The notes beneath the pieces were generated by a model, which saw only the letters and a list, made by a program, of their open reading frames with translations, had not been told where the DNA came from and did no database searches. From positions 115,819 through 179,818 of the forward strand of contig JBGAGM010000002.1 in assembly GCA_044226725.1 (NCBI GenBank): DNA of 64,000 nucleotides, in the 5' to 3' direction. The DNA comes from Ferruginibacter sp. GTDB taxonomy: Bacteria > Bacteroidota > Bacteroidia > Chitinophagales > Chitinophagaceae. This document shows, in pieces, positions 40,162 through 63,076 of the stretch. Numbering within the stretch: the stretch's first letter is position 1; the number at the start of each line of letters is the position of its first letter. The position numbers and the translations under genes are program-made.

Positions 40162-40187
40162 ATCATCAATAAAAAAAATGCAGAAGG

Positions 40188-40991: not shown

Positions 40992-41009
40992 TGCAATATT
41001 ATGTTTGCT

Positions 41010-44897: not shown

Positions 44898-44910
44898 TCT
44901 GAAATATCAG

Positions 44911-45336: not shown

Positions 45337-45635
45337 CCTCCGATTAAAACGGTTGGAAACCCTAAAACAATTGAGCCTCCGTGTGCTGTTGTATCTCCCA
45401 TCCTGGCTGCCGGCTTGCCGCAAATCATCACCGTTGCAGAGCCTTTCACTATTGAATCGGGCGGGCCAACACACACAGCACTATCTCCCAGTACAGCTGC
45501 CGGTAAATTTCCAATTAATACAGTCGGGGCACCCGGTCCTGCAATTGGGCCACCCACATGCGGTACAGGTGGCACGCCCGGTGTTACCATCGGGCAGGTA
45601 TGCATATCTGTCAATCTTGCGGCTGGTGTTCCCAT
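45333..45635 (-). CDS. PAAR-domain spike-tip protein (Afp10)
   Basis: 100 aa with PAARLTD, PAAVLGD and PAARMGD repeats. Confidence 0.9.
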   Translation of the reverse strand: MGTPAARLTDMHTCPMVTPGVPPVPHVGGPIAGPGAPTVLIGNLPAAVLGDSAVCVGPPDSIVKGSATVMICGKPAARMGDTTAHGGSIVLGFPTVLIGG

Positions 45636-45643
45636 TTATCTTT

Positions 45644-47443: not shown

Positions 47444-47446
47444 GCC

Positions 47447-48130
47447 TTAATTTTTTATTGGAGGAAAATACAATTCCATTCCGGGTTCAATCGCATTAAT
47501 ATGATCAAGCCCGTTGATACCGGCAATTTGATCATAATAAGAACTGTCGCCATAAACCTGGTATGTCATCAAAGGCAAGGTATCGCCGGCCTTAACAGTT
47601 CGCCAGTGTGTAAGGTCGGGCGAGGACAATTTTGCTTCCTTTAATTTTGAATCAAAATCTGCCGTAATAAGCAATCCAAGTTTTATTTTAGCACGTAATG
47701 CAGTACCATCCGGATTAAACAAAGTATAGGTCACATCAAAGGCGTTGCAAACACACTTACTTACCATTTTGCCCCAGGATATTTTCAGATATGGCGGCCT
47801 GTGAGAGGTTCCCACATATCCGCATACCACTTTCCTGAATTTCTCGATATACCCGTCAACATCTGTATTAACATATCCCTCCACTTCCTTTTTTAATTTT
47901 ACCAGGCCGGTTCCATCCACAATGATCTCTCCCAATTCCAGCTTCTCTTCGCCTGCATTGGTAAACACATAAGTAGACTTGGGGCTCCCAACAGTCTTTG
48001 TATTTTCATAGGTCATGGCAATTTTGCTGCTGTACTGGCCGGGATTAATAAAAGCGTAAACCTTATCCAATGCACTTCCGCTGCAATCTGCATCTTTATA
48101 CGACTCTATCTTTATTTTCTTGAGCTCCAT
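47447..48130 (-). CDS. Tube-initiator / LysM-domain baseplate hub protein (Afp7-like)
   Basis: A tube-like N-terminal domain is followed by a C-terminal LysM domain (WRTVKAGDTLPLMTYQVYGDSSYYDQIAGINGLDHINAIEPGMELYFPP). Confidence 0.8.
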   Translation of the reverse strand: MELKKIKIESYKDADCSGSALDKVYAFINPGQYSSKIAMTYENTKTVGSPKSTYVFTNAGEEKLELGEIIVDGTGLVKLKKEVEGYVNTDVDGYIEKFRKVVCGYVGTSHRPPYLKISWGKMVSKCVCNAFDVTYTLFNPDGTALRAKIKLGLLITADFDSKLKEAKLSSPDLTHWRTVKAGDTLPLMTYQVYGDSSYYDQIAGINGLDHINAIEPGMELYFPPIKN

Positions 48131-48303
48131 CAGCGTTCCCTGTTTTTTTGTAATCCTGCTTTTATTTTTTCAATACATTCTTTGACGATCCGGTTTTTCA
48201 TTTCCGACAGTTTATGATCAAGCAGCCTGTTGTCCGTTCCGGCCGGCTCATTACTTTCATTCACCGTTACCTTAATGATCAACTCCCGAATTTCCAGTGG
48301 CAT
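48130..48303 (-). CDS. 57-aa eCIS small protein, DUF5908-like (Afp6 position); below the ORF-track cutoff
   Basis: Own translation: MPLEIRELIIKVTVNESNEPAGTDNRLLDHKLSEMKNRIVKECIEKIKAGLQKNRER. The ATG lies 3 nt after the tube-2 stop, and the stop overlaps the LysM gene ATG by 1 nt (TGATG). An MPxEIRELxIK start is what I recall for this eCIS family. Confidence 0.65.
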   Translation of the reverse strand: MPLEIRELIIKVTVNESNEPAGTDNRLLDHKLSEMKNRIVKECIEKIKAGLQKNRER

Positions 48304-48306
48304 AAT

Positions 48307-48771
48307 TTATACATTGGTTTTCTGATCGGTTCTTTCATAATAATCATAGGCCAGCTCCAGTGTTTCAATAGCATATTTGTTTTCAGTGGAATTAAGGTCT
48401 GATACCTTTACTGAAACCGGATAAGCATTGTGGAATGCCCAGTTTACGAGCGGATCGCCCTTTGCGTTCATCAGCATCACATTCACCATTTTGGGTTCAA
48501 ACGTAAAGTTCTGTATCGCTTTATTGATCCATGTCATAAAAGGAGACCCCAGCAGGAGCCCCCTTTTAAGGACGAGGTTTGAATATTGAACGGCCTTCGG
48601 TAATTTCCTGGAAAACTGGTTTTCGCCACCTTCCTGGATCGTCTCTGTCTCAATCTTAACATCAAGCCCGCTTACATTTTCAAAGCCTGCTTCATACATT
48701 CCATTTACTCCTTCTACAATCACCTTAAAATAAAATACAACAGGTGGATCATTTCTTTGATTGTCAGCCAT
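48307..48771 (-). CDS. Tail tube protein 2 (Afp5-like, T4 gp19 family)
   Basis: PVVFYFKVIVEG...FENVSGLDVKIETETIQEGGENQFSRKLPKAVQYSNLVLKRG is the conserved phage-tail-region tube signature. Confidence 0.85.
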   Translation of the reverse strand: MADNQRNDPPVVFYFKVIVEGVNGMYEAGFENVSGLDVKIETETIQEGGENQFSRKLPKAVQYSNLVLKRGLLLGSPFMTWINKAIQNFTFEPKMVNVMLMNAKGDPLVNWAFHNAYPVSVKVSDLNSTENKYAIETLELAYDYYERTDQKTNV

Positions 48772-48822
48772 TGAAAAATAGGTGCTATGCTTAAGATTAT
48801 ACCATTAAATTACCGGACCTGC

Positions 48823-49275
48823 TTATGCCAGCGCCAATCCCTCATGTGCCAGTTCCATCGTTTCCACTGCTGGCTCATTGGCATCCGATTTCATATCGGT
48901 AACGGTTATCTTGCACGGAAATGCATTTGCCAGTGTCCATGACATAGCAACACCGTTTTTCTCATCCAGCAATGATATGGTTATTGTTTTGCGCTCAAAA
49001 GTATTCATCACTACCTGCTTGTAGAGGTCCCAAAAGCCCTTATCATCCTTGAAGATTCCTTTCTTCAGTGTAACATTTCCGAACTTTTTGATGCCCGGCA
49101 TTTTTACGGTTGAATATTCCTTGCTGTTGCCCTGGCGATATTCGATCTGCTGTATCTCGGCACTTAACCCGGTTACCTCCTGAAAAAATGCTTCCTTATC
49201 GCCTATTTTAACAGAGAATTGAAATTTTACCAACGGCCATGTTGATTTCGATTGCTCTTTACCTGTTTCTGCCAT
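48823..49275 (-). CDS. Tail tube protein 1 (Afp1-like, T4 gp19 family)
   Basis: WPLVKFQFSVKIGDKEAFFQEVTGLSAEIQQIEYRQGNSKEYSTVKMPGIKKFGNVTLKKG is the tube signature. Confidence 0.9.
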   Translation of the reverse strand: MAETGKEQSKSTWPLVKFQFSVKIGDKEAFFQEVTGLSAEIQQIEYRQGNSKEYSTVKMPGIKKFGNVTLKKGIFKDDKGFWDLYKQVVMNTFERKTITISLLDEKNGVAMSWTLANAFPCKITVTDMKSDANEPAVETMELAHEGLALA

Positions 49276-49327
49276 AAAATAATATTTAAAGGTTTTTGAT
49301 TAATAAAAATGAGTGAACTGATTTCTG

Positions 49328-50884
49328 TTAAGATTGCTGTTGTTGCTGCTGGAATGTTAACACAATGAATTCAGCAGGACGTACCAGTGCAAGCTTCACC
49401 GTTACCAGCAGGTATCCATCCAGGATGTCTGTTGGCGTCATGGTGGCGCCCAGACCCACCTGAACATCGAAAGCCTGTTCGGGAACGGCACCGGCCAGTG
49501 CGCCCTGTTTCCATAAATTGTTGAGGAAATTATTCATCATACTTTTCATGGTAACCCAGGTTGCAGAATCATTTGGTTCAAACACATATGCACGGCAGGC
49601 CAGTTTCAGTGATTGTTCTATCATGATCATGGTTCTGCGAACATTGATGTAGCGCCAGTCCTGGCTGTTTCCATCAAGTGTTCGGGCACCCCAAACCAAA
49701 CTTCCCAAACCGGGGAACGGACGTATAGCATTGATCGATTTGCCGGTGATAGCATCGATATTCATCTTTTGCTGTTCTTCGCCCGAAATATTTACAGCCG
49801 GTGAATTAACCATGGAAAGAGAAACGTTGGCTGGTGATTTCCATACACCCCTGGTACTGTCCACAAGTGAATAAATACCAGCCATAGCCGCACTTGGAGG
49901 CAACAGATTCAGCTTATTCCTTACCTCTGCCATTATTTGTGTGTAGGTAATGCTTGAAGCGATCAATGACTGGTGCAGGGTTGTAATTTCCCTGTCAATC
50001 CTCTTTTGCACTTCTGCTGCAGTTTCAGCTTTTGCCGGTGGCGATGCTGGCGGAGAAGCGGCCTTGTTCTTGGCCTCATTCCATTTGTCAATCACTTCAG
50101 CAACTTCCGGCTCTGGTAAGATTGCTTTCAGTTCATCAACCGAAACATCGAGGTTAGTAAAATTAATCTCAGACGCCATCACAATGGATGTATTTAACCA
50201 GGGATAATAAGCGGCCCCGTAATTCAGCGCCTCTGATCCAACACCATCACGGAATTTTAAAAAAGTGTCTTCCATTGTTGAATCTGCGGCATCCGGTATC
50301 ACATCAAAAATTCCAAAACGGCTTTGTGTTTCGTGACAATGCCTTAAAACCTTTACGTACAGGTTGTAACAATCGTCCCTTTTAGTAACAAAATCAGGGA
50401 TCACAACCATAGTAGGTTCAAATGTCTTTTTAAGCCTTTCAAAGACTGTGTCAGGAAGATCCGATATATCTACAGCAGTTTTTTTATCTTCTCCTTCTCC
50501 ATAAGTACCAATCGACAATATATAACAATTGCTTCCGCCATTCTGGTAAAAGAGCCGGATACAGTTGTAGAAATAAAACATTTCGGCAGGCTTTACAACC
50601 ATATCTGCATTGAATTTCGTGATAGCGGCAGGAGGAGAAGACGGTGGCGAGCCGGCAACATTTGTCAAACCAAATTTATGTTGATATCCATGTCCAAACC
50701 ATTGAACATATTCTGCAAATGAGCTGATCCGCACAGGTTCGCCAACTAGCGAAATGCCTTTTCGTTCAGCTTTTTCGGTATAGCCAATAAAAACCGGCAC
50801 AGCTGTTTCAACTGCAACTGCTGAACCGGGGAAGGCGTTTTTTTCTTCAATATAAACGCCGGGTGTCATGTAGGTAGATGCCAT
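49328..50884 (-). CDS. Contractile tail sheath protein (Afp2/3/4-like)
   Basis: The N-terminus TYMTPGVYIEEKN and the C-terminal sheath domain (INAIRPFPGLGSLVWGARTL...WRYINVRR) are present; 518 aa. Confidence 0.9.
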   Translation of the reverse strand: MASTYMTPGVYIEEKNAFPGSAVAVETAVPVFIGYTEKAERKGISLVGEPVRISSFAEYVQWFGHGYQHKFGLTNVAGSPPSSPPAAITKFNADMVVKPAEMFYFYNCIRLFYQNGGSNCYILSIGTYGEGEDKKTAVDISDLPDTVFERLKKTFEPTMVVIPDFVTKRDDCYNLYVKVLRHCHETQSRFGIFDVIPDAADSTMEDTFLKFRDGVGSEALNYGAAYYPWLNTSIVMASEINFTNLDVSVDELKAILPEPEVAEVIDKWNEAKNKAASPPASPPAKAETAAEVQKRIDREITTLHQSLIASSITYTQIMAEVRNKLNLLPPSAAMAGIYSLVDSTRGVWKSPANVSLSMVNSPAVNISGEEQQKMNIDAITGKSINAIRPFPGLGSLVWGARTLDGNSQDWRYINVRRTMIMIEQSLKLACRAYVFEPNDSATWVTMKSMMNNFLNNLWKQGALAGAVPEQAFDVQVGLGATMTPTDILDGYLLVTVKLALVRPAEFIVLTFQQQQQQS

Positions 50885-50967
50885 AATGTGAGGTTTATTT
50901 GGTTAAATAAATAATTTGTAAAAAGATGATCACATCTTTAAAGGAAGCAGTATTCAGTATTCTCTGA

Positions 50968-51072
50968 TTATCCCGTGAAAAGCTTGATAGGATCAGCTGA
51001 AATATGTGGTAAACTGACAGGCGTCAATTTCAGCTCCGTGCATACACGGGCTGGCATGAATAGATTGAACAT
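50968..51072 (-). other. 34-codon mini-ORF 1, copying the sheath leader and N-terminus (functional peptide or decayed duplication)
   Basis: Own translation: MFNLFMPARVCTELKLTPVSLPHISADPIKLFTG. It is preceded by TTAACC-N9-AACCTCAC-N3-ATG, the same leader pattern as the sheath gene (which has TTTAACC). Confidence 0.35.
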
Positions 51073-51147
51073 ACGGTGAGGTTATTAAAGGTTAATACTT
51101 AAGATACTCCTGAGGTGAAAGGATCTTAGGACATTTGAATACCGAAC

Positions 51148-51252
51148 CTAACCTGTAAGTGTAATTACTTGCCAGGAATAATTTCCTTTGCAGCAATAAA
51201 TGCATTTTTTCTCTTCAACGGGGACGTTGAAGCTTGTGAAGTTACTTGACAT
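51148..51252 (-). other. 34-codon mini-ORF 2, copying the sheath leader and N-terminus
   Basis: Own translation: MSSNFTSFNVPVEEKKCIYCCKGNYSWQVITLTG, to compare with the sheath MASTYMTPGVYIEEKNAFPGSAVAVETAVPVFIG. The same leader motif is present. Confidence 0.35.
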
Positions 51253-51339
51253 GATGTGAGGTTTTGTCAGGTTAAATAAAAAGAATTCCGGAAGGATATT
51301 AAATTGAAAGAGAAGATAAATATAATACTATAATCCGCA

Positions 51340-52350
51340 TTATAAAATTATTGTTGAAATTTTTTTTTCCTCGTTATGCTCATCTGTTCCAATTCTTCCT
51401 GATATTAAATTAACATCAGCATCCGGAAGGATCATGGGCGGATTCAGTTCTCTAAAGCTGCTGTTCTGTACGTCAAAATCGCTTACCAGCCTGAAGTTGC
51501 GCATAGGTTTGTTTGAAAGCGGGATACTTTTTTTTGACACTATTGACAGGGCAGTCATCCCCCCGGGAAGGCCAACAGGCACAGGCTCTTCAAATACAGG
51601 CTGGTTGGTATTGTCAACAATTGCGGGATTTTTCAGGCTTTGAAAATGCGGGCTTCTGAGAATATATTGCCGGTAAGTTGACAGCGCATCGAACTGCAAA
51701 ATAATTTTTTGATTAAAATCGTAAGCCGGATCAGGATTGAGCCTGATCGAAATCTGCCCGAAAGGTTTAGAAAAATAAGAATCCAATAAAGTTATATTAC
51801 CCTGGTATTGTTTTTTCCTGAATACATCTTCATTCAGGGCCTTTGCAAACATTTTGTCAAAGATGACGCTATTGGAGATATCGGCTCCTTCGGCAATCAT
51901 TTTTCTGGTAACATATTCCTTCATTTGTGCCCAAAGCCTGATGTCATTCATATCTGCCCCACTAATAAGCTCATCCTGTTGCAATTTTCCGCCTGGCCTG
52001 TACAAGGCATCAACAGAGTTATAATTCCAGAAATGAAACACCAGGTTACTTATGACAGGGGGAATGCCGGCAGTGTAGTTATAGAAATTGCTGTCCAAAA
52101 GATCAATACGAAATTTAAGCATCGCCTTTGTCTGCAGTAATGCTTCCCTGTTTTTTTGCCAGCTTCCCGGATCTGTTTCGTAAGCCACCAGGAAACCGGT
52201 TCCGTATGGTTTGAACAGCATCTGGCTATCAAGCATGATCTTTTGTGTTTCTGCTGCGGGGCTCACTTTAAGCCCGGCAAACAAACCATCGCCACTGAAG
52301 TACCTGTGACGGAATTCGACCCTGAATAGTTCTTCGTAATGAAAATTCAT
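51340..52350 (-). CDS. 336-aa eCIS-associated protein of unknown function
   Basis: It lies between the cap gene and the sheath region, 32 nt from the cap gene stop. No motif was recognised. Confidence 0.4.
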   Translation of the reverse strand: MNFHYEELFRVEFRHRYFSGDGLFAGLKVSPAAETQKIMLDSQMLFKPYGTGFLVAYETDPGSWQKNREALLQTKAMLKFRIDLLDSNFYNYTAGIPPVISNLVFHFWNYNSVDALYRPGGKLQQDELISGADMNDIRLWAQMKEYVTRKMIAEGADISNSVIFDKMFAKALNEDVFRKKQYQGNITLLDSYFSKPFGQISIRLNPDPAYDFNQKIILQFDALSTYRQYILRSPHFQSLKNPAIVDNTNQPVFEEPVPVGLPGGMTALSIVSKKSIPLSNKPMRNFRLVSDFDVQNSSFRELNPPMILPDADVNLISGRIGTDEHNEEKKISTIIL

Positions 52351-52382
52351 TGTGCGGTTTGTATTTGTTAATTACGTTAGAA

Positions 52383-52955
52383 TTAAGGGTTCCTCTCATT
52401 AGCAGATGTAATGGCAGGCCTGTATTCCTTCAGCTGATTGCTGCTGAAGGAAAGCATCCGCAACTTGTACAATACCGAGGGCATATATTTTGCCCCAAGC
52501 GTAGCCCAAAGGTTATTCAACTTTTCTGTACTAAGGCTTACCATTTCCAAAGACATTTTTTCAATATTGCTGTCGAGGGTTGGGGAATTAGCTGTTGTGA
52601 ATACATTTTTTTCCTGCAAAAAAGAAATTACCAGCGCAAGGAATTTAAGCGCCTCGTCATAATTCGAATTTGCAAAATAGGCAGAAAAAAGAACGTAAAG
52701 ATTAATGCTAACCGGGTTGTTCATATTTTCTGTGGTGCGGTTGTTTCCCGGGTTATAACTTTTGGAAACCGGCTCTTCTTCGATATTTACCAGTGTAACC
52801 ACTATTGTATTCTCCTCCTTGATAGCCACCTGCCCGGCCTGGTCAACAATGCCGGATAATAACACTTTTGATTTCAGGTCATTGCCAAACATATGCTGGC
52901 TTTTAAGGAATTCATTAAGCTCCGACACCAAACATTTCAAGGCTTCATTTATCAT
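52383..52955 (-). CDS. Tail terminator/cap protein, DUF4255 (Pvc16/Afp16 N-terminal domain-like)
   Basis: MINEALKCLVSELNEFLK..., VVTLVNIEEE, INLYVLFSAYF and LWATLGAKYMPSVLYKLRML match my recollection of DUF4255 conserved blocks. Confidence 0.7.
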   Translation of the reverse strand: MINEALKCLVSELNEFLKSQHMFGNDLKSKVLLSGIVDQAGQVAIKEENTIVVTLVNIEEEPVSKSYNPGNNRTTENMNNPVSINLYVLFSAYFANSNYDEALKFLALVISFLQEKNVFTTANSPTLDSNIEKMSLEMVSLSTEKLNNLWATLGAKYMPSVLYKLRMLSFSSNQLKEYRPAITSANERNP

Positions 52956-53137: not shown

Positions 53138-55597
53138 ATGAAAAGTAAAACAAATCGTTTTGCAGTTCGGACTATTACTCTATTGGCTATTGCCTGCTTT
53201 TCTTTATCGGGGTTTACCCAAAAAGAAAAACTTCACTTCAGCCTGAAACTTAGCAGCAGCCTGAACTCCAGTACTTATATCAATGATAGCGCTCCGCCCC
53301 GTTTGGGTTATAAGAACACCGACACCCTTCCTTTTAGTTATAAGAAATTAAAAACAAACGATACCACTGCCAGCTTGTTGAAACGACTGGGTAATGTGTT
53401 TAAATTTAAAAAATTTGCACGGTTCAATGAAAAGAACAGGATCATTGATTTGCTAAACCAGCTTAACATTGGAGACTCCATCGTGGCCACACAGCAAAAT
53501 GTGGCATTCCTGAATAAGTACCTTACTGATACTGTAAATCAAAATATTGACTCTCTCTATTCACTCATTTATTTTCTTCAAAAAAGCGGGCAGGACCTTT
53601 ACAATGATATAAGTGACCTGGAATCAGAACAGGGAGACTTAAAGAAACGAATGGCTATCATTGATAAATATAATGAGGATTATCAGAAAATTGGTTTGGA
53701 TAAGTATGCAAGCAGGCTAGTATCTGATAAGGAATTGAACATCCTTGCCAGTAAGATTTTCCCTATCATATCTGTTTCAACGGATATTAAAAAAGCTGCT
53801 GAAAAAATTGCAAAGCTCACTTTGCTGAAAAACATAAGAGATTCTGCAGGCATTGTGCGTGAAATGACAGATGCTGCTACTGGCGAAAAGAAATATTTCC
53901 GCATTCGTGCAAAGAACAAGATCGAAGTTTATGGTTTTTATAATTACTTAAGCAAAGGCTCTTTTCAATCCGGCAATCTTAACTATCTCAATTCTCTCAT
54001 TTATTCCAACCTTTATATCAATAGTAAAACCGGTGATATAAAAGATCTGAATGGCTGGGATACCTCGTCCATAGTAACTATGGCTCAAAATGCCGGTTGC
54101 TCAGTGGCGGTTAGTTTTGCCATTGAAAATCCAAACAATGTCCAGGATTTTCTGAACAATAATAATGCACAGGTAAACTTTATTAAATCTGCTGTTTACC
54201 TTATGAAATTCAGGAATGCTAATATGATAAACATTGCATTCTACAATTTTCAACCTGAGTACGAAGTAAAGTTCACTGGTTTCATAAAAAACCTTAATAC
54301 CGCTTTAAAGCAGGACAATGCTGATTATTCACTACTTGTTACCATTCCCGCCCTTACTGCCGGTAATTATTACCCGCTTGCTCAATTGGGTGTTATTGCC
54401 GACAGGATCATTGTTGATTTCAGCCAGTATTATCATACAACTTATCTTCAGCCTGCTTACCCGCTTATGGGGCTGCCTGCGATGGAAGAGACAATCGCTT
54501 TTTTCATCAAATCAAAAGTGCTTCCTGAAAAATTGGTTGTATGTGTTCCCTATCATGGCGCCAAGTGGAGCACAGATCCATTCAACCCCGACAAGTTTAT
54601 TGAGTACATAAGCTATGCTACCTTACGTAAAAATTATCGTCTTTTTCCTGGCTATATCAATTACCTGGATGAAACCCTTGTCACTTCCGTCATGGATTCT
54701 GTTGGTTTTAAAAAAGATACTTTGAGAAGGATATATTATGATGACGAATCTTCCCTTGGTTTTAAGTATGATTTTATCTTGAAAAATGGCTTTAAAGGAG
54801 TTGCTGTAAATGCACTGGGTGAAGACAATGGTTATTCGGGGCTTTGGGATGAAATGAGTTATGCATTTGCAACCCCAGACACAGTTTTACTGAATGGCCT
54901 TGTAAAGAAGGCGCTTGTGAAGGAAAAGGGGCTCGGCTTTTTTCAAAAGCTATACAGGCAACTGACCCTATACAATTACATTTTACAAAACCCCTGTGAA
55001 ATATGCTTTGAAAATATTAAAGACTCTGCTCAAAATGAATTGATACAGCAATATCTCCTGGACCTTGATATTTATGCAAAAATGAAAGCTGCAAACTCTG
55101 AGCGGCTAAAAGAAGGCGCCTCTCCTTACAGAAGCCAGTTTCAATACGTAAATGAACAATTGACCCGTACTATTTTTATCATAACTGCTATACTTGTATT
55201 ATTGTTGCTTGCCCTTGGTATCTTTTATTTTCTAAAAACAAAATCACTTGGGGATAACTGGAATGGAAGGAAACTTATTGCCAGGTTGCTCCTGGCAGAT
55301 TCAATCCTGATTGTCCTCTTTTTGTTCACTTATTTATTCTGCAGTGACAATATCCTGTTTTTTGAATCAGCAGCTTCTGATAAATCAGGATATTCAAAAG
55401 ATTACAGTACAGACAACAGCGCCCCCGGCATCTTAAGTTCCAGCACCTTTGATTATTGTGTAAAAGATCCTGCTTCGGATTGTATCAATATGCCGCTACA
55501 AACTTTACTGGGTATTATGATACTGGGGTTGATCATAGGCGGCATTTTAACAAGATATCTTTTATTACCTATGCTCAAGCGATACGAGAAACCCTGA
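53138..55597 (+). CDS. Membrane protein with a GH18-like (chitinase-fold) domain lacking the catalytic DxxDxDxE motif, plus three C-terminal TM helices
   Basis: Signal/anchor, then a coiled-coil-like region. GH18-like blocks VYGFYNY, CSVAVSFA and GFKGVAVNALGEDN are present. ANMINIAFYNF replaces the DGxDxDWE catalytic strand. The C-terminal hydrophobic helices are IFIITAILVLLLLALGIFYFL, SILIVLFLFTYLF and LLGIMILGLIIGGIL. Confidence 0.5.
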   Translation: MKSKTNRFAVRTITLLAIACFSLSGFTQKEKLHFSLKLSSSLNSSTYINDSAPPRLGYKNTDTLPFSYKKLKTNDTTASLLKRLGNVFKFKKFARFNEKNRIIDLLNQLNIGDSIVATQQNVAFLNKYLTDTVNQNIDSLYSLIYFLQKSGQDLYNDISDLESEQGDLKKRMAIIDKYNEDYQKIGLDKYASRLVSDKELNILASKIFPIISVSTDIKKAAEKIAKLTLLKNIRDSAGIVREMTDAATGEKKYFRIRAKNKIEVYGFYNYLSKGSFQSGNLNYLNSLIYSNLYINSKTGDIKDLNGWDTSSIVTMAQNAGCSVAVSFAIENPNNVQDFLNNNNAQVNFIKSAVYLMKFRNANMINIAFYNFQPEYEVKFTGFIKNLNTALKQDNADYSLLVTIPALTAGNYYPLAQLGVIADRIIVDFSQYYHTTYLQPAYPLMGLPAMEETIAFFIKSKVLPEKLVVCVPYHGAKWSTDPFNPDKFIEYISYATLRKNYRLFPGYINYLDETLVTSVMDSVGFKKDTLRRIYYDDESSLGFKYDFILKNGFKGVAVNALGEDNGYSGLWDEMSYAFATPDTVLLNGLVKKALVKEKGLGFFQKLYRQLTLYNYILQNPCEICFENIKDSAQNELIQQYLLDLDIYAKMKAANSERLKEGASPYRSQFQYVNEQLTRTIFIITAILVLLLLALGIFYFLKTKSLGDNWNGRKLIARLLLADSILIVLFLFTYLFCSDNILFFESAASDKSGYSKDYSTDNSAPGILSSSTFDYCVKDPASDCINMPLQTLLGIMILGLIIGGILTRYLLLPMLKRYEKP

Positions 55598-55610
55598 CAG
55601 AATAAAATAA

Positions 55611-56219
55611 ATGTGTATGGAGCTTTTAGACAAAGCCAATATATTTCGTTTTCATAATCAACTGATCAATGCTTATGGTATCGGTACGGTGGATGCACTG
55701 GGATGGAATGATATCGGCGGGCAGCTTGCACGATTTAAAGTATTGTCCGGCATTGGTGATCTTACTGATCGCTCTGTATTAGACGCCGGATGTGGCTATG
55801 GCGATCTCTACGACTATCTGCAGGCTGCCTATCCCCGTCTTCGTTATTATGGTGTTGAGCAGATGCCCGTGATACTGAACGAGGCGCTAAGCAGGTACAG
55901 TCATAGACCGGGCACTTATTTTTTTGAAGGAGACTTTTCCGCTGCTGACCTGCCCATGGTTGATTATGTGATAGCGTGCGGATCGCTGAACTATCACAAC
56001 AGCGATAACCTGTTTGTTTTAAAGACCATTGAAAAACTATTCAATACAAGCCGCATCGGTTTTGGTTTCAATTTATTAAAAACGATCGACCCGCCAGAAG
56101 GTTTCCTGGAAGCATATGACCCGGCTTACATCATGGCTTTTTGCAGTAAATTAACAACACATATTAGGTTTATTGAGGACTATTATCAAGCAGACTATAC
56201 GATATTCATGTACCATTAA
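55611..56219 (+). CDS. Class I SAM-dependent methyltransferase
   Basis: Motif I is VLDAGCGYGDL, and the size is about 200 aa. It lies 13 nt downstream of the GH18-like gene. Confidence 0.7.
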   Translation: MCMELLDKANIFRFHNQLINAYGIGTVDALGWNDIGGQLARFKVLSGIGDLTDRSVLDAGCGYGDLYDYLQAAYPRLRYYGVEQMPVILNEALSRYSHRPGTYFFEGDFSAADLPMVDYVIACGSLNYHNSDNLFVLKTIEKLFNTSRIGFGFNLLKTIDPPEGFLEAYDPAYIMAFCSKLTTHIRFIEDYYQADYTIFMYH

Positions 56220-56296: not shown

Positions 56297-56824
56297 TTAC
56301 AATGCCATTGCTTTTGCGCCCATTACATCCGCTTCATGTTCCAGGCCTGCATCATCATTAACCGGTATCCCTTCTTTCATCTGCATGGTGGGTTGCACCC
56401 GGCCCTGCTTCTGTTGAGCCACGTGCCATGCTTCATGCGGTAAGTGCCGCTCCTGCCCCGGCGCCACATGTATGTCTGTTCCCTGTGCGTAAGCAAGTGC
56501 ATTTAATTGTGCCGGTTGCGATGAATTGTAATGTACTTTAACGTCATCCATGGAAAGCCCTGAGAGTGTTTCAACTCCCGTTTTTAAATTATCAGGCAAT
56601 CCTGTATTATTTGCTTTTCTTTGAACCGGAGTGAATTTACCCTGCAATGCCTTCTCTTCCTCAATACCTGCTTTTTGAATGGTATCAAATTTTGCCTGCT
56701 TAGGTTCTTCTTCTTCAACCAGCATTTGTACAGCCGGTAAACTTTTTGTAAAAGCAGTTTTATTTTCGGCAGCAGCAAAACTCACTTTTTCGCTCTTACC
56801 AGTAGTTGAAATATATGCCGACAT
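56297..56824 (-). CDS. Stand-alone DUF4157 protein (175 aa) with no toxin domain
   Basis: TPVQRKANNTGLPDNLKTGVETLSGLSMDDVKVHYNS...HEAWHVAQQKQGRVQPTMQMK is a close paralogue (about 80 percent identical by eye) of the DUF4157 module of cargo E. It ends about 30 aa after the domain. Confidence 0.75.
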   Translation of the reverse strand: MSAYISTTGKSEKVSFAAAENKTAFTKSLPAVQMLVEEEEPKQAKFDTIQKAGIEEEKALQGKFTPVQRKANNTGLPDNLKTGVETLSGLSMDDVKVHYNSSQPAQLNALAYAQGTDIHVAPGQERHLPHEAWHVAQQKQGRVQPTMQMKEGIPVNDDAGLEHEADVMGAKAMAL

Positions 56825-57048: not shown

Positions 57049-57582
57049 CTAAAGAAAATAATCCTGGCTTATTATCTGGCCATTATCATCAGGATTTGTT
57101 GGTGCCATTTCAATTTGAAGACGAGCAATAATATCTTCAATCCATTTTTGCGTTACGGCAGGATCATCAGACACTTCGATACAGCCATTGATACAATTAA
57201 AAAAGTAATCTTCATCTACATCAAATACATCACTTCCAACAGATGGTTCTACACCACCACTTTCAAAATATTCAATAATATGCATTTTTTGAATAGTATA
57301 ATAATGCATGTATAATATAACATGAAATGCTTTCAGCAATGATGGATTTTCATGGAACAATAATTCCTGCTCCATTAGTTTGGGATTATGTGTCCAGTAA
57401 ATAGAAGAACAACCAGGCTCTCTTTTCTCCAGCCAGCTCCAGCCATCATTTATCAACTGGCTAATCAAAAGAGCTGTATTTGGGTAACCTTGAAATATTT
57501 TTTTTACTCTTGTCGTACAAGCTAGTAAAAATCCAATACGTGCAGTTTTAGTAATAGTTGTTGTATCAAATTCCTTTATCAT
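57049..57582 (-). CDS. Candidate immunity protein for the upstream deaminase toxin
   Basis: 177 aa, with no signal peptide. Its ATG overlaps the toxin stop by 4 nt (ATGA at 57579..57582). The family was not recognised. Confidence 0.5.
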   Translation of the reverse strand: MIKEFDTTTITKTARIGFLLACTTRVKKIFQGYPNTALLISQLINDGWSWLEKREPGCSSIYWTHNPKLMEQELLFHENPSLLKAFHVILYMHYYTIQKMHIIEYFESGGVEPSVGSDVFDVDEDYFFNCINGCIEVSDDPAVTQKWIEDIIARLQIEMAPTNPDDNGQIISQDYFL

Positions 57583-60500
57583 GGTGTAGCTCTATTTACA
57601 ATTTTTCCACCTTTAACGAATAATACTTCCGGTGTTCTGTTATTGGTTACAATGAGTGTAATATTAGGATATTCCTGGCTAAATTGCTTCACAACTCCTG
57701 CATCAACTTCGGGATTGGTAAGTCCTTGCCGGCATGCACTACACACTTCCTGCTCTACTAATACATAAACATTACCCTTTGCATCAGTTTTAGACGTAAA
57801 GGTTGCATCCAGTTTATCAGCAAGATCGCCAAGTACATTTTGTTCTGCATGATTTTTTGTGCCCCCAAATTTTTGGGGAGATTGGTAACGGGGGTTATTT
57901 CTGACAGTAGCCGCACTGGCACCTTTAGACTTAGTAGAACCTTCAGTAATGATTTCTTCTGCAAAACCTTCTATTTTAGGTTTAGCAGCAGCGCTTGTGC
58001 CGCCTTTAACGCCTTCAGATGTTACTGTGCGGCCTATACCCGTCGATTTTCTAAAATCATTAATCGATTTTTGAAGCTGCGGCGTTACCTCTTCGAGTGT
58101 TTTTGTTGTGGCCTTAGCCTCTTCAAAAGCCTGCTTTAATATAGTAAGCTCTTCCGGCGTAAGATTAGCTGCATCCTCAATCACTTTTAAACCTTTTAAC
58201 TCTAGCAACCATTGTTCAAATCTTATTATACCGCGGCGCACTGCAAAATAAGCCATAGCAGAGTATGTGGGTATCAGATCTATCCCTATTGACATCCTTG
58301 CTCCGGGATTGAGCACTGCCATTACAGATTTATACTGTGCCTCTAATTTTGCAGCCTTTACAACATTTGCTTTTGTTACTGCATCAATTTCCTTTATTTG
58401 CGATACACTCTTTTCAAAAGTTACAATATCGCCGGTTTCATTTAAAATTTTTGCTGCAGGTGCCAAAGCTTTAACCGCAGCTACAGCAGCTCCAAGGTCC
58501 AGCCCTGCCCCTATAACAGCCACTACCACCCAACCTATACTTGGATCATCGGATAGCAAACCGGAACCATAAGCCGCATGTTTGGTTTCATATTCTTTAA
58601 ATTCCTGGATGGCCTGGAATGCACTGATACCAAAAGCCCCAACAGCTCCTATCACTGCTATGGTACCACCACCAAAGGTTAACAAGCCTAGAGCTACTGC
58701 AAATACTGCCACCAATATTTTTATAATAGCTTCATCTCTGCTGATCTGCCTTCGCCGGTCAGTAATGATCTGATCATGAATACCTCCGGGTTCAATTTGC
58801 TGCTGCTCATAGGCAGCTTTCAACAGATCATCAAGCTTAAAGATCAGCATAGGGTCATCAGCAAGGTCTTCCCGGGTAGTAGCAATATCTTCTCTGCGAT
58901 CGGCTATGTAAGAAAGCATTATTGACTTGATTTCATCCTGCTCAGCAAAAGCAAGTTCTCGCTTGTCAAAATCTTTATTTTTCATCAATGGGCTTGCAGA
59001 AGCAATACCCGACACATCACTTTCTGCTGATCTTTCGAGCGAATTAGCTTCAGTGCGAAGCTTGGCTTTCAGTTCTATGTCGCCCGGGGCATATTTGCCG
59101 GGGTCAGCCGGCATGATCATAGTAGCCGTACTCCGGTTACTGTCCGCCTCGTTATACTTCTCTTTTGCCTTAGTTTGGCTAAGTTGTGAATAGATTTGAC
59201 TTATATAGGCAGGATCATTGAACTTTTGTTCTTCTTCGTACAATACATGTTCGTACTTTGACAAAAGATCGTTAGCGATATGCACTGTTTCCGTTACAAA
59301 TGAACTTTCAAATTCAGCTATCAGCTTTTCGAATTCTCCAATACTGTTGATTTTATATTGCTGCAGGCTTGCAGTCAGGTCAAGCTCTGCCTGACTGAAT
59401 TTATCAAGCGTGCTTTTAGAGGCAGGAGTATATTTCATTCTCGGACCATCACCGGTACGTTCCCAGCCGGTAGTGCCATGCGAACTTATTTCAAGAGCTT
59501 TGTACTCCTTATATTTTACATAAATTTCATCAAGACCATATAATTGTGCACGTACTGTTTCAAGTTTTTCCTGTTCAATTTTACGTTGTTTCAGTTCTGA
59601 AATATATTGATCTATTGATGCTTCAAATTCATCAAAATTTGTTGTAGAAGCATTTATCTTGCTCTTATAGTCAGCAAGTTCTGCATTACTAAGGCTCATT
59701 AATTTTTGAATGATGCCTGCTACCTGTTCATAATTATCAGGAGTAATAGGATTAGGCCCTTTGAATAATTCCTTAATAGCAGGGGGCATATTTTCAATAA
59801 GTCTTTTCTCTGCCATTACCTTATCACGCAGGCTGTTCCATATGGCAATATTCCCCGTTTCATTTTTCGACTTGATCTTCTGATCAGAAGGTATGCCAGT
59901 ACTTTGATAATAGCGCCGGTCTATTTCTGCATTAATTCCTGTTCTCAATTCACCGGAAGTGGCGGCGTATTCTGCAGCACTTTGCTTTTTCTCTTTTTCA
60001 CCTGGTCCTTCACCATAATTATTAAGGTCGCTAACCGGAACAATGTAATTAATTGTTTTACCCGCTTTACTCTTGACGTCCAGGCCAAGCTGTCTCCATT
60101 TTTTATTGACAACTCTACCGAATATTTGTATTTCTGCATAGCGATCAAGTTCCTGTTCAGAGTTCAATCCGGGCGGAATAGTAATTGGCCGTTTTACAGT
60201 AGCAACTTGTGGATCACCTCCCTCTGCTTTTTGTATTAAATTTTGCTGAAAAGATGCCCCTTGCTGCACTACATGTGTTAGCTCGTGTGCCAGTAGTTTT
60301 TTCCCGCTTTCTGTATTAGGCCGGTATTGCCCTGTACCAAAAGCGATGTGGTGCTGGTGTGTATAAGCCAATGCATTGATATCCTTTGCTGATTGATGTG
60401 CAAGTGAGTCGTTATGTATCTGTACTTTGCCAAAATCAAATCCAAACCTGTTTTCCATGAATGAACGGGTTTGCTTGTCTAATGGCTGCCCCTGCGATTG

Positions 60501-61070
60501 TATTACCTGCTGTACATTGGCAGAGACAGCGGGGGCTTTATTATCCGATTCCTTTCTTTGTAATTGCTTTTCTTCTTCCTCTTCACATGCTGCACATTTA
60601 CGCTGAATATTTTTTATTAACCCGGTTTCAACATCTTCAGCCTCCTCTTCACGTTCTTCTTCTTTTCCGCAGCCGGCACACTTGCGTTGAATTTTTACCG
60701 GAGAAGGGCTGGCTTTAACCGGTCCACTCTCAGGCATACGCATAATTTTATCAGCAACTGCATCTGCCTCCTGTTCATATTCATCTGCGGGCGTATTGAT
60801 TGATAATTTTGGCTGAATACCTGCAGGAATCTTTTGGCATACCGAAATGTTTGCGAAATGATGTGCAGGTTTTACAGTATTCATATCTTTTTTTACAGAA
60901 CCAGTAAGGCTGGCTTTTCCTGTAAAGCCGCCTGCAACGCTTTTGCCGCTTATGAGTGCATGTTGCATATCATTACCTGCTTCTTCAATTTTACGGGAAG
61001 AAACGTTTTCAGATAATTGCAAAGACTCTTCTGAAGTATTTGTTCTTACTTCAGCTAATGCACCATTCAT
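57579..61070 (-). CDS. 1163-aa polymorphic toxin: DUF4157, long helical region, hydrophobic helices and a C-terminal deaminase-like domain
   Basis: DUF4157 preamble (QPKLSINTPADEYEQEADAVADKIMRM; QRKCAGCG/QRKCAACEEEEE) and core (RFGFDFGKVQIHND...AHELTHVVQQG). Two hydrophobic stretches occur (ILVAVFAVALGLLTFGGGTIAVIGAVGAFGISAF and GWVVVAVIGAGLDLGAAVAAV). The C-terminus carries NHAEQNVL (57843..57851) and VCSAC (57732..57743), the H-A-E...C-x-x-C zinc site of the cytidine-deaminase fold. Confidence 0.7.
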   Translation of the reverse strand: MNGALAEVRTNTSEESLQLSENVSSRKIEEAGNDMQHALISGKSVAGGFTGKASLTGSVKKDMNTVKPAHHFANISVCQKIPAGIQPKLSINTPADEYEQEADAVADKIMRMPESGPVKASPSPVKIQRKCAGCGKEEEREEEAEDVETGLIKNIQRKCAACEEEEEKQLQRKESDNKAPAVSANVQQVIQSQGQPLDKQTRSFMENRFGFDFGKVQIHNDSLAHQSAKDINALAYTHQHHIAFGTGQYRPNTESGKKLLAHELTHVVQQGASFQQNLIQKAEGGDPQVATVKRPITIPPGLNSEQELDRYAEIQIFGRVVNKKWRQLGLDVKSKAGKTINYIVPVSDLNNYGEGPGEKEKKQSAAEYAATSGELRTGINAEIDRRYYQSTGIPSDQKIKSKNETGNIAIWNSLRDKVMAEKRLIENMPPAIKELFKGPNPITPDNYEQVAGIIQKLMSLSNAELADYKSKINASTTNFDEFEASIDQYISELKQRKIEQEKLETVRAQLYGLDEIYVKYKEYKALEISSHGTTGWERTGDGPRMKYTPASKSTLDKFSQAELDLTASLQQYKINSIGEFEKLIAEFESSFVTETVHIANDLLSKYEHVLYEEEQKFNDPAYISQIYSQLSQTKAKEKYNEADSNRSTATMIMPADPGKYAPGDIELKAKLRTEANSLERSAESDVSGIASASPLMKNKDFDKRELAFAEQDEIKSIMLSYIADRREDIATTREDLADDPMLIFKLDDLLKAAYEQQQIEPGGIHDQIITDRRRQISRDEAIIKILVAVFAVALGLLTFGGGTIAVIGAVGAFGISAFQAIQEFKEYETKHAAYGSGLLSDDPSIGWVVVAVIGAGLDLGAAVAAVKALAPAAKILNETGDIVTFEKSVSQIKEIDAVTKANVVKAAKLEAQYKSVMAVLNPGARMSIGIDLIPTYSAMAYFAVRRGIIRFEQWLLELKGLKVIEDAANLTPEELTILKQAFEEAKATTKTLEEVTPQLQKSINDFRKSTGIGRTVTSEGVKGGTSAAAKPKIEGFAEEIITEGSTKSKGASAATVRNNPRYQSPQKFGGTKNHAEQNVLGDLADKLDATFTSKTDAKGNVYVLVEQEVCSACRQGLTNPEVDAGVVKQFSQEYPNITLIVTNNRTPEVLFVKGGKIVNRATP

Positions 61071-61108: not shown

Positions 61109-63076
61109 TTAGCCCGGAGAAAATTCTTTTCCTGCACCTGAAGCTGTTTTTGCATCATCTCTTCTCTTAATCACTTCATCTTTATAGGCTTCAGCTCTTG
61201 CTGTATCACCATTATAGGCCTTAATAGCTTCGGCCCAGTTACTCGTTCCTTTTCTTTTTTCGTACAACCACCTAACACCCGTTCGTATCCAGAAATCGTA
61301 ATCCAGGTTGCGGGGATTGGAAGTTTCAGCAAAAAATTCTTTAACAGCAGCTATCCATCTTGGGTCTGTAAAATAATAGTCATTCCATCGGTATTTATCA
61401 GTAACGCTATTATAACCTGAACGCCTGTTTAATTCATCCAATTCAGCTTGCTCAACAGTAGTAATAGTACTTCCTTTTGCTTTGAGTTCTTTACTGCGGG
61501 CCTGGGCAGCCCACATATCTTTGGTTACATCGTCCAGTTTATATTTTGTGTCAATAGCCGGACTTATTTCTTTTATCATAAGAATTTGCTGCGGTCCGCA
61601 GCTATCAACTGCCTGCGGAATATTGAACCTTGTCATAACATCGTAACTATGATAGGGCGGCTGATGTAAATACCTGCCAGATGTGCCCATCTGCGATTCC
61701 TGGAATAACATGGATTTTACAATGTTCGGGTCCAGGGTTGACCAACCATTTGGCTTTCCAATGAGTGTCTCATAATGTTTCACCCATTTTACCACACTTG
61801 CGTCAAAGGTATTGTACATGGTTTCCTGTATAATCTTTTGATTAACCAGTACACTTTGAGGTGTGAGTGGTACCCAAACACCTGACCCTGACTTTGTCTC
61901 CCGCTTTAGTCTTTGTGGCAAAGTTAAAGCAGTGTAACCTCCGCCGCCGTTTAATTTATATTCCAGGTCGGCTAGCTCTGTTTTTTTCACATCCATTTGC
62001 CTCTGCCATTCGGCCTGGCCTTTGGCTGTTGTATATTTTGATTGTTCTGCACTCCAATCTGCTATAACCTTTTGCTGAGCTTTTATTTTTGTTTCAATGC
62101 CCCAGTATTTTGTTTCTGCTGCTGCAACACCTGCTGTATATTGATATAGGCCGGAAGCTTTATCTCTTATTGGTGTTAACCAATCTTTTTTTACAGTAAA
62201 AGTTACTTTGGTCATAGCAGGCTTCTCAATAGCCTCAACTGTTACCCGTTCATTTGTATTATCCCAGATTTTTACTGTAACCGTATCGCCTTTAGGATAA
62301 GTTTTTCCCTTAAAATTTATATCGATAGATAATAAAAAAATCTTGCCAATCATCTCCTGAGATGCATCTTCAGGAGCAAAACGCTGAATTAAGTTTTTGT
62401 TGTTCCCTTGCTGTATGGTATGAACCAGTTCATGTGCCAGCAAGTATTTTCCAGTTGATGCAAATGGATCATATTCTCCCTGGTTAAAGTAAATATCCCT
62501 GCCAAAAGTAAAAGCTCTCGCATTTATTTTCCGGTTCAGATTTACAGCCTCGCCATCCGTATGAATCCTAATATCACTAAAATCTGTACCGAATCTGTTT
62601 GACATAAAGGATTCAGTAACTATATCCATTCGATTTCCAGATCCCTGTGAAGCCGTGATTTTATCCTCGAGTACTGAATCAATCATTGTTCCGCCCGCAT
62701 CGGCTTTTGTTTGCATTACTGCGCCAATATCTGTTGAAAGCGGTTGTAATGCTTCTTGCTTTTTTAACTTTTGCTCTTTACTTCCAGGTTTATTTTGCGA
62801 GGCAGTTTCTCCTGATAGCTGCATCACAGTATTTGCAATTGCATCTGCCTCTTGTTCATATTTATCACCGGGAGCATTAACTGATAGTTTTGGCTGTATC
62901 ATCGTATTAGATGAAAAGAGCGATATATTACCATAGCTGTGAAGGGTTTGTGAAGCAGGGGGACTGCTTACAGTTTTTTTAGATAACCAACCTTCCACGA
63001 ATGAATCATTCAAACCATTATCATTCTTTTTTATAAGACCGTCAGCCGGTCGCTTTTTTTGTGAATGAGCTATCAA
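61109..63076 (-). CDS. 655-aa DUF4157 protein with a possibly lysozyme/lytic-transglycosylase-like C-terminal domain
   Basis: DUF4157 is supported by IQPKLSVNAPGDKYEQEADAIANTVMQL and RFGTDFSDIRIHTD...AHELVHTIQQG. The C-terminal segment LDPNIVKSMLFQESQMGTSG resembles the catalytic-Glu block of SLT-type transglycosylases, but this is a weak match. Confidence 0.6.
   Translation of the reverse strand: MIAHSQKKRPADGLIKKNDNGLNDSFVEGWLSKKTVSSPPASQTLHSYGNISLFSSNTMIQPKLSVNAPGDKYEQEADAIANTVMQLSGETASQNKPGSKEQKLKKQEALQPLSTDIGAVMQTKADAGGTMIDSVLEDKITASQGSGNRMDIVTESFMSNRFGTDFSDIRIHTDGEAVNLNRKINARAFTFGRDIYFNQGEYDPFASTGKYLLAHELVHTIQQGNNKNLIQRFAPEDASQEMIGKIFLLSIDINFKGKTYPKGDTVTVKIWDNTNERVTVEAIEKPAMTKVTFTVKKDWLTPIRDKASGLYQYTAGVAAAETKYWGIETKIKAQQKVIADWSAEQSKYTTAKGQAEWQRQMDVKKTELADLEYKLNGGGGYTALTLPQRLKRETKSGSGVWVPLTPQSVLVNQKIIQETMYNTFDASVVKWVKHYETLIGKPNGWSTLDPNIVKSMLFQESQMGTSGRYLHQPPYHSYDVMTRFNIPQAVDSCGPQQILMIKEISPAIDTKYKLDDVTKDMWAAQARSKELKAKGSTITTVEQAELDELNRRSGYNSVTDKYRWNDYYFTDPRWIAAVKEFFAETSNPRNLDYDFWIRTGVRWLYEKRKGTSNWAEAIKAYNGDTARAEAYKDEVIKRRDDAKTASGAGKEFSPG

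Follow-up and report, generated by a model that had tools for sequence, protein, structure and literature searches.

Organization of the toxin locus

We analysed a stretch of 64,000 nucleotides (nt) from Ferruginibacter sp. (GenBank assembly GCA_044226725.1, contig JBGAGM010000002.1, positions 115,819 to 179,818), hereafter the window, with a focus on a minus-strand gene for a protein of 1163 amino acids (aa) that ends in a predicted deaminase domain. This gene, referred to as the toxin gene, lies near the structural operon of an extracellular contractile injection system (eCIS) and is followed by an open reading frame (ORF) of 177 aa, a candidate immunity gene (Table 1). Both ORFs are present as claimed in an earlier note on this DNA, and the longer one is deduced to be a real gene because full-length homologues exist (P0017, P0161, P0162 and L001 at 33-37% identity; P and L numbers are our handles for proteins and loci of relatives).

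The eCIS operon, which we judge complete, is found on the same strand at a distance of about 6 kb (the toxin cluster begins at 56297 and Pvc16_N ends at 52955), and the toxin falls within about ten genes of it, as is asked of eCIS cargo. In the toxin, an eCIS_core domain with the HExxH motif (HELTH, aa 262-266, 60273..60287) sits N-terminal to a variable effector region, the arrangement by which DUF4157 cargo is recognized. The earlier note's description of a large DUF4157-led toxin beside an eCIS therefore agrees with the Pfam match to the toxin and with the operon in the window. Three other proteins in the window possess eCIS_core as well (655, 175 and 687 aa), and the N-termini of the toxin and the 655-aa neighbour share the consensus IQPKLS[IV]N.P.D.YEQEADA. 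Upstream of eCIS_core the toxin also has a tandem pair of IQRKCAxC motifs (aa 128-167, 60570-60690), both of which lead into an acidic run (KIQRKCAGCGKEEEREEE and NIQRKCAACEEEEEK); in the 175-aa and 687-aa proteins, motifs of a related PVQRK type come before eCIS_core.

The long linker that follows eCIS_core has no family in Pfam, PHROGs or NCBIfam, and a blastp search with aa 281-990 gave full-length matches to P0017, P0161 and P0162 only. After the linker come three hydrophobic segments, for which the Kyte-Doolittle mean over 19 residues reaches 2.58; the Gly/Ala-rich stretches that the earlier note had put at 58480..58760 are thus present within about 30 nt of that place. The boundary of the C-terminal module was placed by homologues that have other N-termini.

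Table 1. Toxin gene, candidate immunity gene, other eCIS_core proteins and eCIS operon in the window
Feature	Position	Strand	Evidence or remark
Toxin gene, 1163 aa	57579..61070	minus	ORF; eCIS cargo-type protein with C-terminal deaminase domain
Hydrophilic N-terminal region, aa 1-195	60486..61070	minus	Grand average of hydropathy -0.73, isoelectric point (pI) 5.3
N-terminal motif IQPKLSINTPADEYEQEADAVADKIM, common to toxin and 655-aa neighbour	60741..60818	minus	Alignment of the four eCIS_core proteins of the window
eCIS_core (formerly DUF4157), aa 196-271	60258..60485	minus	PF13699, E = 1.6e-29, 102 bits against a cut-off of 22
Long linker rich in charged residues, aa 272-780	58731..60257	minus	Conserved in the closest homologues only
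Three Gly/Ala-rich hydrophobic segments, about aa 781-799, 802-820 and 845-873	58452..58730	minus	Kyte-Doolittle profile
C-terminal toxin module, deaminase-fold domain (predicted), aa 989-1163	57582..58106	minus	Boundary from homologues with other N-termini
HAE, aa 1074-1076, predicted zinc ligand and catalytic glutamate at start of helix 2	57843..57851	minus	H and E invariant
CSAC, aa 1110-1113, two predicted Cys zinc ligands	57732..57743	minus	Both C invariant
Candidate cognate immunity gene, 177 aa	57049..57582	minus	Acidic, all-helical; ATGA overlap with toxin stop at 57579..57582
655-aa eCIS_core neighbour, second cargo candidate	61109..63076	minus	PF13699, E = 1.9e-27; has the toxin's N-terminal motif
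175-aa eCIS_core protein, downstream of immunity gene	56297..56824	minus	PF13699, E = 4.6e-9
687-aa eCIS_core protein, fourth of the window	29613..31676	plus	PF13699, E = 3.1e-10
eCIS structural operon	31726..52955	minus	Pfam: Pvc16_N, sheath, two gp19 tubes, CIS_tube, spike, gp25, baseplate, CIS tape measure, AAA ATPase
Pvc16_N, first gene of structural operon	52383..52955	minus	Pfam
Sheath	49328..50884	minus	Pfam
CIS tape-measure protein (CIS_TMP), 1404 aa	33078..37292	minus	Pfam
AAA ATPase	31726..33087	minus	Pfam
Two gp19 tube proteins, CIS_tube, spike, gp25, large baseplate proteins	within 31726..52955	minus	Pfam

The C-terminal domain probably represents an uncurated deaminase family

The C-terminal module contains NHAE (aa 1073-1076) and, after exactly 33 residues, VCSAC (with CSAC at aa 1110-1113), both within the last 91 aa of the toxin, precisely the spacing that had been read from the sequence earlier. 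Among 20,000 shuffles of the toxin protein, only five had the motif [HC][AV]E-x(20-45)-CxxC anywhere. The whole toxin holds seven cysteines, and six of these form three CxxC pairs.

An exhaustive HMMER search over 1.84 billion representatives retrieved 254 cluster representatives of this domain family at E <=0.001 (82 at E <=1e-10), compared with a mere handful from a word-indexed search. The residues H1074, E1076, C1110 and C1113 are among the invariant columns in 53 diverged full-length relatives and likewise in 27 diverged relatives, and 102 of the 105 full-length copies of the domain retain HxE...CxxC, the exceptions being two with DAE and one without a Cys. The family consensus reads GHAEQ and VCSxCRxG, corresponding to TKNHAEQN and CSACRQ in the toxin itself. 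A profile search with close relatives gave no match among genome contigs, in a collection without the window's own genome, and a second contig scan found Synechococcales, Bradyrhizobium and one uncultured bacterium only, with no match in Amycolatopsis.

The nearest Pfam model is PF14424 (BURPS668_1122, Toxin-deaminase; 21.2-24.5 bits against a gathering threshold of 29.6), for which the best E among the 27 relatives is 2.6e-5, compared with 3.2e-5 for the 24.5-bit match, again below threshold. Weak Pfam matches among the 27 diverse members were to PF14424 (19), dCMP_cyt_deam_1 (PF00383; 7), MafB19 (4) and SNAD4 (3), while NCBIfam holds no model for the domain. A search of PDB sequences with the single toxin domain yielded no match, and a profile of the 27 sequences matched only ADAT2, weakly (E = 0.42), with HAE placed on the HAE of this protein and CxxC aligned to it as well.

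In the AlphaFold2 model of the domain (predicted local distance difference test, pLDDT, 78; predicted template modelling score, pTM, 0.78) the chain passes from two strands through an insert of roughly 30 residues to the HAE helix, and then through a strand, the CxxC helix and another helix to a strand hairpin. This predicted order is that of the three-layer alpha/beta/alpha fold of the superfamily (strand 1, strand 2, helix 2, strand 3, helix 3, strand 4, strand 5). The predicted strands 149-155, 161-165 and 168-173 are consecutive with no helix between them, as in the C-terminal hairpin division of the superfamily, where strands 4 and 5 form an antiparallel hairpin without an intervening helix (Iyer et al. 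2011, PMC3239186). When the model was compared with PDB structures by Foldseek, the top-ranked matches were almost all blasticidin-S deaminase or APOBEC3H, 2, 3G and 3B, at weak scores (E >=0.14; template modelling scores, TM, 0.36-0.45), and neither this model nor that of the 177-aa protein had a Foldseek match at E <=0.001. Judged from the conserved residues and the predicted fold, the domain is in all likelihood a member of the deaminase superfamily, in the C-terminal hairpin division, and belongs to a distinct family that curated models do not capture. To find such a family outside the coverage of Pfam, NCBIfam and PDB is new here.

The earlier note had called this end of the toxin DddA/SCP1.201-like. 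The deaminase part of that label is supported by the invariant H, E, C and C, the predicted fold and the deaminase-rich Foldseek list, but the clade is not. In the Foldseek comparison that had been proposed, deaminases rank at the top, but none is significant and DddA is outside the best 50. A true SCP1.201/DddA-type deaminase of cytidine in double-stranded DNA would suit the domain's place in the same higher-order group of toxin deaminases: a segment inserted after strand 2 and before helix 2 unites the YwqJ, BURPS668_1122 and SCP1.201 clades (Iyer et al. 2011, PMC3239186), and both DddA (6U08) and the toxin have an insert before the HxE helix. The rare DAE variants of the family also recall the [HD]xE variability of the SCP1.201 clade, and hhalign detects a local similarity at the turn between strands 1 and 2 (D-x-x-G-L-E-x-K-x-F). 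Both modules, moreover, are of the interbacterial deaminase-toxin type, end a large delivered protein and have an immunity gene or a candidate for one downstream (DddI for DddA). However, none of the 27 members matches the SCP1.201 model (PF14428), and hhalign of the family profile against DddA, with a sequence verified as identical to PDB 6U08, gives a probability of only 3.7%. The clade signature [HD]xEx[KQ] is out of register by one position, as the toxin has Q at E+1 and not at E+2, and predicted strand 3 ends in VEQ instead of N, although the insert (about 30 aa in the model) is present. DddA further differs in its carrier and its delivery machine and has no profile or structural match to the toxin domain, and DddI is unrelated to the 177-aa protein, which is predicted to be all-helical. 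We therefore reject membership in SCP1.201 and regard a DddA-type enzyme as highly improbable.

BURPS668_1122 was likewise considered and rejected as the family of the domain, because the matches remain below 29.6 bits and the signature residues of the clade are absent. Of the Pfam models it matches best and most often (19 of 27 members), over helix 2 to the C-terminus, and both families occur in polymorphic-toxin contexts. However, the BURPS668_1122 clade has DxE or RxxDxExK in helix 2 where the toxin family has HxE, and CxxCxS in helix 3 where the toxin has CxxCRQ. It is also often truncated after helix 3, whereas the elements after helix 3 seem intact in the toxin, with the hairpin present in the model.

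The deaminase domain is a module shared by unrelated carriers

The family is not confined to eCIS proteins. Among 53 relatives the carriers include eCIS_core (26), PT-HINT (2) and WXG100 (1), so that about half of the examined members are found on eCIS_core. The same domain ends an RHS protein of Oscillatoria nigro-viridis PCC 7112 (WP_015179651), next to an Imm10 gene, and a toxin of the LXG type VII secretion system in Niallia (WP_237944355), next to an Imm6 gene; both are from annotated plasmids. These modules are homologous to that of the window toxin (30-35% identity), keep HAE, CxxC and GV.KQ[FL]S..YP, and have an immunity gene directly downstream, but their carriers, secretion routes and immunity families (Imm10 and Imm6) are different. 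Since RHS, LXG and PT-HINT toxins of other bacteria also finish with this domain, we deduced that it is a polymorphic-toxin module. Several features that identify such toxins are seen, namely one module on unrelated carriers, stand-alone or orphan cassettes (L007, 159 aa, and L019), and a downstream gene that co-occurs and co-diverges with the module.

Could the fold serve another chemistry or substrate, for instance free nucleotides, a small molecule or non-catalytic binding, so that the domain is no mutator of nucleic acids? The family is uncharacterised, its links to characterised deaminases are all remote, and blasticidin-S deaminase, a small-molecule enzyme, is among the best structural matches. 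Yet the full zinc and catalytic set of H, E, C and C is invariant, the domain is basic, and a toxin with an immunity gene on RHS, LXG and eCIS carriers is the typical context of deaminase toxins that target nucleic acids. A different chemistry thus seems decidedly unlikely, and a nucleic-acid deaminase is the reading that we follow below.

Two layouts of the module are found on eCIS_core carriers. In one, as in the window, the deaminase is C-terminal after a long linker; in the other it adjoins eCIS_core, and a tail of 200-500 aa comes after it. The second layout is seen in about 35 representatives (e.g. P0046, P0047, P0090 and the Bradyrhizobium loci L015-L018), where the tail often has transmembrane-like segments, so the module order in proteins of the P0046, P0047 and P0090 type is the reverse of that in the window toxin.

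Some loci show rearranged or broken forms. In L019 (518-5749) a 1395-aa toxin with a deaminase end is followed by a homologue of the immunity gene (4718-5275) and then by a stand-alone deaminase of 155 aa (P0011), which is the classic layout of an orphan module. Six to seven independent assemblies of soil metagenomes show the toxin's closest full-length homologue as a split form (L001 9940-10060, and also L002-L006). In L001 the 987-aa eCIS_core ORF ends at 10056, and the deaminase lies in the +1 frame with a TAA upstream (9953-9955) and its own ATG at 10001 (P0002). A split gene, recoding or the decay of a fusion might account for this; programmed frameshifting seems less likely, as no slippery site is obvious and the downstream piece has an in-frame ATG.

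A candidate immunity gene follows the deaminase domain

The toxin gene ends in ...ACA CCA TGA, and the ATG of the 177-aa ORF overlaps this stop as ATGA, as had been noted before. The 177-aa protein is acidic (pI 4.67, net charge -12) and hence complementary in charge to the basic deaminase domain (pI 9.05). Its AlphaFold2 model is all-helical (pLDDT 94, pTM 0.91). No match to the protein was found in Pfam (E up to 10, including the Imm models, Imm6 and Imm10), NCBIfam or PHROGs, and Foldseek found no structural match to the model in PDB (best E 0.35, TM <0.3).

The distribution of its homologues is informative. In the window, L001-L006, L007, L008, L011, L012 and L019, they come directly after the deaminase domain whatever part lies upstream, often with a 4-nt overlap and in seven locus types besides the window. 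Identities to the window copy fall together, being 50, 50, 31, 30, 26 and 26% for the immunity homologues and 62, 73, 63, 59, 52 and 40% for the toxin domains. Because a homologue sits after the deaminase domain in each of these loci with downstream sequence, whatever the carrier, these neighbourhoods support an immunity role, and the toxin-immunity pairing that the earlier note had claimed for the window gains support from the other loci. The 177-aa protein probably behaves as a cognate immunity protein, and it represents a putative helical immunity family that is unannotated and new here.

Another possibility is that the 177-aa protein is a chaperone or adaptor, which would keep the hydrophobic cargo soluble or hand it over to the eCIS, comparable to the Eag chaperones of type VI secretion effectors with transmembrane helices. 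Its gene is translationally coupled to a cargo with three hydrophobic helices, and an all-helical protein with no match to a known immunity family would suit such a role. But the family travels with the deaminase module and not with the hydrophobic or N-terminal parts, which disfavours a chaperone of the hydrophobic region. For instance, a homologue follows the stand-alone 159-aa deaminase in L007, another follows the L012 toxin, whose upstream region is unrelated to that of the window toxin and has only a weak hydrophobic stretch, and in L019 the homologue lies between the toxin and the orphan cassette. Orphan copies in L009 and L010 and the charge complementary to that of the deaminase domain also argue against a chaperone, which we consider very unlikely; immunity is the role that fits the linkage.

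Two further arrangements were observed. L009 (1-752) and L010 (1-749) hold an immunity homologue of 61% identity with no deaminase coding in the 215 nt upstream, which are unusually rich in G+C, and this copy appears to be an orphan immunity gene. The metagenomic protein P0146 (330 aa) joins, in frame, the C-terminal half of the deaminase domain with a tail for which the hidden Markov model of the immunity family gives a match (E = 1.8e-7), representing either a toxin-immunity fusion or an artefact of gene calling.

Hydrophobic helices and relationship to known eCIS effectors

The first two hydrophobic segments of the toxin (aa 781-799 and 802-820) probably form a hairpin, as far as their sequence indicates, and aa 781-873 may be regarded as a candidate membrane-insertion module. 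Transmembrane-like segments recur in the family (60 of 85 proteins of >=500 aa), either upstream of a C-terminal deaminase or downstream of a deaminase in the middle of the protein, and the linkers are non-homologous. The other three eCIS_core proteins of the window have no transmembrane-like segments. A match of the NCBIfam model SLATT_1 to the hydrophobic hairpin (aa 782-834, 58569-58727; E = 0.042, 13.8 bits against a cut-off of 41) is too weak and was not used. SLATT domains are two-helix membrane effectors.

Among the closest known proteins of comparable architecture are Cgo1 and Cgo2 of AlgoCIS in Algoriphagus machipongonensis, DUF4157 proteins that fill the lumen of the tube (PMC8894135). 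Their common N-terminal regions are required for loading (bioRxiv 10.64898/2026.05.27.728243), and by analogy aa 1-195 of the toxin are a candidate for a system-specific loading sequence. Cgo1, Cgo2 and the eCIS-associated toxins (EATs) resemble the window toxin in having a hydrophilic N-terminal region, an eCIS_core with HExxH and a variable C-terminal effector, and Cgo2 (1228 aa) is of similar size. AlgoCIS also has a cargo gene near the eCIS operon and two cargo genes with a common N-terminal motif, as does the window for its candidate cargo. However, similarity between these proteins and the toxin is seen only in eCIS_core. A deaminase on a DUF4157 protein has a precedent in EAT11 of Amycolatopsis nigrescens, which kills E. 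coli and yeast, whereas most EATs are without a recognisable immunity gene (Geller et al. 2021, PMC8213781) and thereby differ from the window toxin with its candidate.

With respect to the membrane, a precedent is Tme of Streptomyces davawensis, a membrane-associated effector that combines DUF4157 with coiled coils, a number of transmembrane helices and a nuclease at its C-terminus; it has been likened to phage tape-measure proteins, the helices of which are thought to form a membrane conduit (PMC11126660). What Tme and the toxin have in common is a DUF4157 in the N-terminal part, then a long linker, several transmembrane helices by prediction and, at the C-terminus, a domain that targets nucleic acids, in the toxin by prediction; a role of the helices in membrane insertion or translocation is plausible from this analogy. 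The two differ in the toxin domain (EndA-like nuclease in Tme, deaminase in the window) and in gene position, as Tme-like effectors are the largest ORF directly upstream of the baseplate genes and the toxin gene lies elsewhere. Furthermore, no phage tape-measure homology is detectable in the toxin with Pfam or PHROGs, and the operon of the window has its own 1404-aa CIS_TMP in that position. The toxin fits the Tme-like, tape-measure-related class in its layout of DUF4157, transmembrane helices and toxin domain, but not in tape-measure homology or gene position. The recurrence of hydrophobic helix modules with this deaminase on eCIS_core carriers is new here and fits a model of tape-measure-like effectors.

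The toxin as probable cargo of the adjacent injection system

Gene structure, domains, motif conservation, predicted folds, toxin-immunity linkage and the eCIS context are best explained if the 1163-aa protein is a cargo or effector of the adjacent eCIS, of the DUF4157/eCIS_core class, with three hydrophobic helices, a 175-aa deaminase toxin module and a cognate immunity gene, to which we assign a probability of roughly 0.78. Several observations weigh on the other side. Two plus-strand genes (53138..56219) part the toxin cluster from the structural operon, so co-expression of the two cannot be assumed. All matches of the domain to curated deaminase models are sub-threshold, Foldseek gives only weak E-values (>=0.14), and by sequence the domain matches none of the solved structures. 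Distant members (L013-L018) have other downstream genes and lack the immunity family at their loci, and as the 177-aa family is without a known relative, its role is deduced from gene linkage. Finally, DUF4157 is dispensable for loading in AlgoCIS (bioRxiv 10.64898/2026.05.27.728243), so eCIS_core need not serve loading in the window toxin.

For loading, membrane translocation, substrate, neutralisation and target, we infer the following course. In the producer cell, the translationally coupled, acidic and helical 177-aa protein would bind and block the basic deaminase domain. The N-terminal region would route the toxin into the lumen of the tube, probably after unfolding by the AAA ATPase of the operon, and contraction would then expel it into or onto the target. 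There the hydrophobic helices may insert in a membrane and help the C-terminal domain to reach the cytoplasm, where it would deaminate a base, most likely cytosine in DNA or RNA. The immunity gene is no proof of an antibacterial role, because a nucleic-acid deaminase would endanger any cytoplasm; all it indicates is that the producer itself is at risk from the domain.

A rather different use would be within the producer's own population, with the toxin as a membrane-associated effector for lysis, release of extracellular DNA or differentiation, comparable to the effectors of Streptomyces contractile injection systems. The DUF4157-associated effectors Tme and Sle1, both with transmembrane helices, localise to the membranes of the producer and affect its development. 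A transmembrane hairpin is typical of Sle1-type effectors, some of which, depending on the species, end in a cytidine-deaminase-like part; RS14790, such an effector from another actinobacterium, carries a cytidine-deaminase-like domain, which its authors fused to Sle1 experimentally. The sequence of the window, for its part, is silent on the target. However, the locus has the features of a released, Bacteroidota-type eCIS (Pvc16_N, the AAA ATPase and the tail proteins), interbacterial RHS and LXG toxins with immunity genes use the same toxin module, and, to judge from its immunity gene, the producer avoids the activity. Action on the own population is consequently unlikely, and delivery to another target by a released particle accounts better for these features.

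Earlier work has described eCIS toxins led by DUF4157, among them one that has a deaminase, as well as DUF4157 effectors with transmembrane helices and polymorphic toxins that pair a deaminase with an immunity gene. The toxin does not overturn current understanding and is a real but fairly ordinary example of a known weapon type. With it the known cargo of eCIS gains a candidate toxin-immunity pair, where, according to the literature, recognisable immunity genes are rare, and its analysis delineates a sizeable deaminase family missed by Pfam and NCBIfam and without a solved structure, together with an unannotated family of putative helical immunity proteins. Should the small domain (about 135-175 aa) act on DNA, it could, along with its inhibitor, be of interest to developers of base editors.

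A bolder proposal, which is possible but which we hold as rather doubtful, is that the domain defines an uncurated deaminase clade specialised for contractile-injection cargo, coupled in either order to a hydrophobic module that aids membrane crossing, perhaps with a substrate or sequence preference unlike those of DddA and SsdA, and accompanied by a new helical inhibitor. If so, an injection particle could carry a nucleic-acid-editing enzyme across the cytoplasmic membrane of its target, and the domain would provide a base-editor scaffold with an off-switch in the helical inhibitor.

Other genes of the window

The C-terminal 270 aa or so of the 655-aa eCIS_core neighbour, which include FQESQMGTSG and for which a muramidase had been proposed earlier, have no sequence match in Pfam or PDB. 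A Por_Secre_tail protein is also present in the window according to Pfam and points to Bacteroidota. The plus-strand genes at 53138-56219 encode an 819-aa protein of the GH18 (chitinase-like) type, whose C-terminal part has several hydrophobic helices, and a 202-aa S-adenosylmethionine (SAM) methyltransferase.

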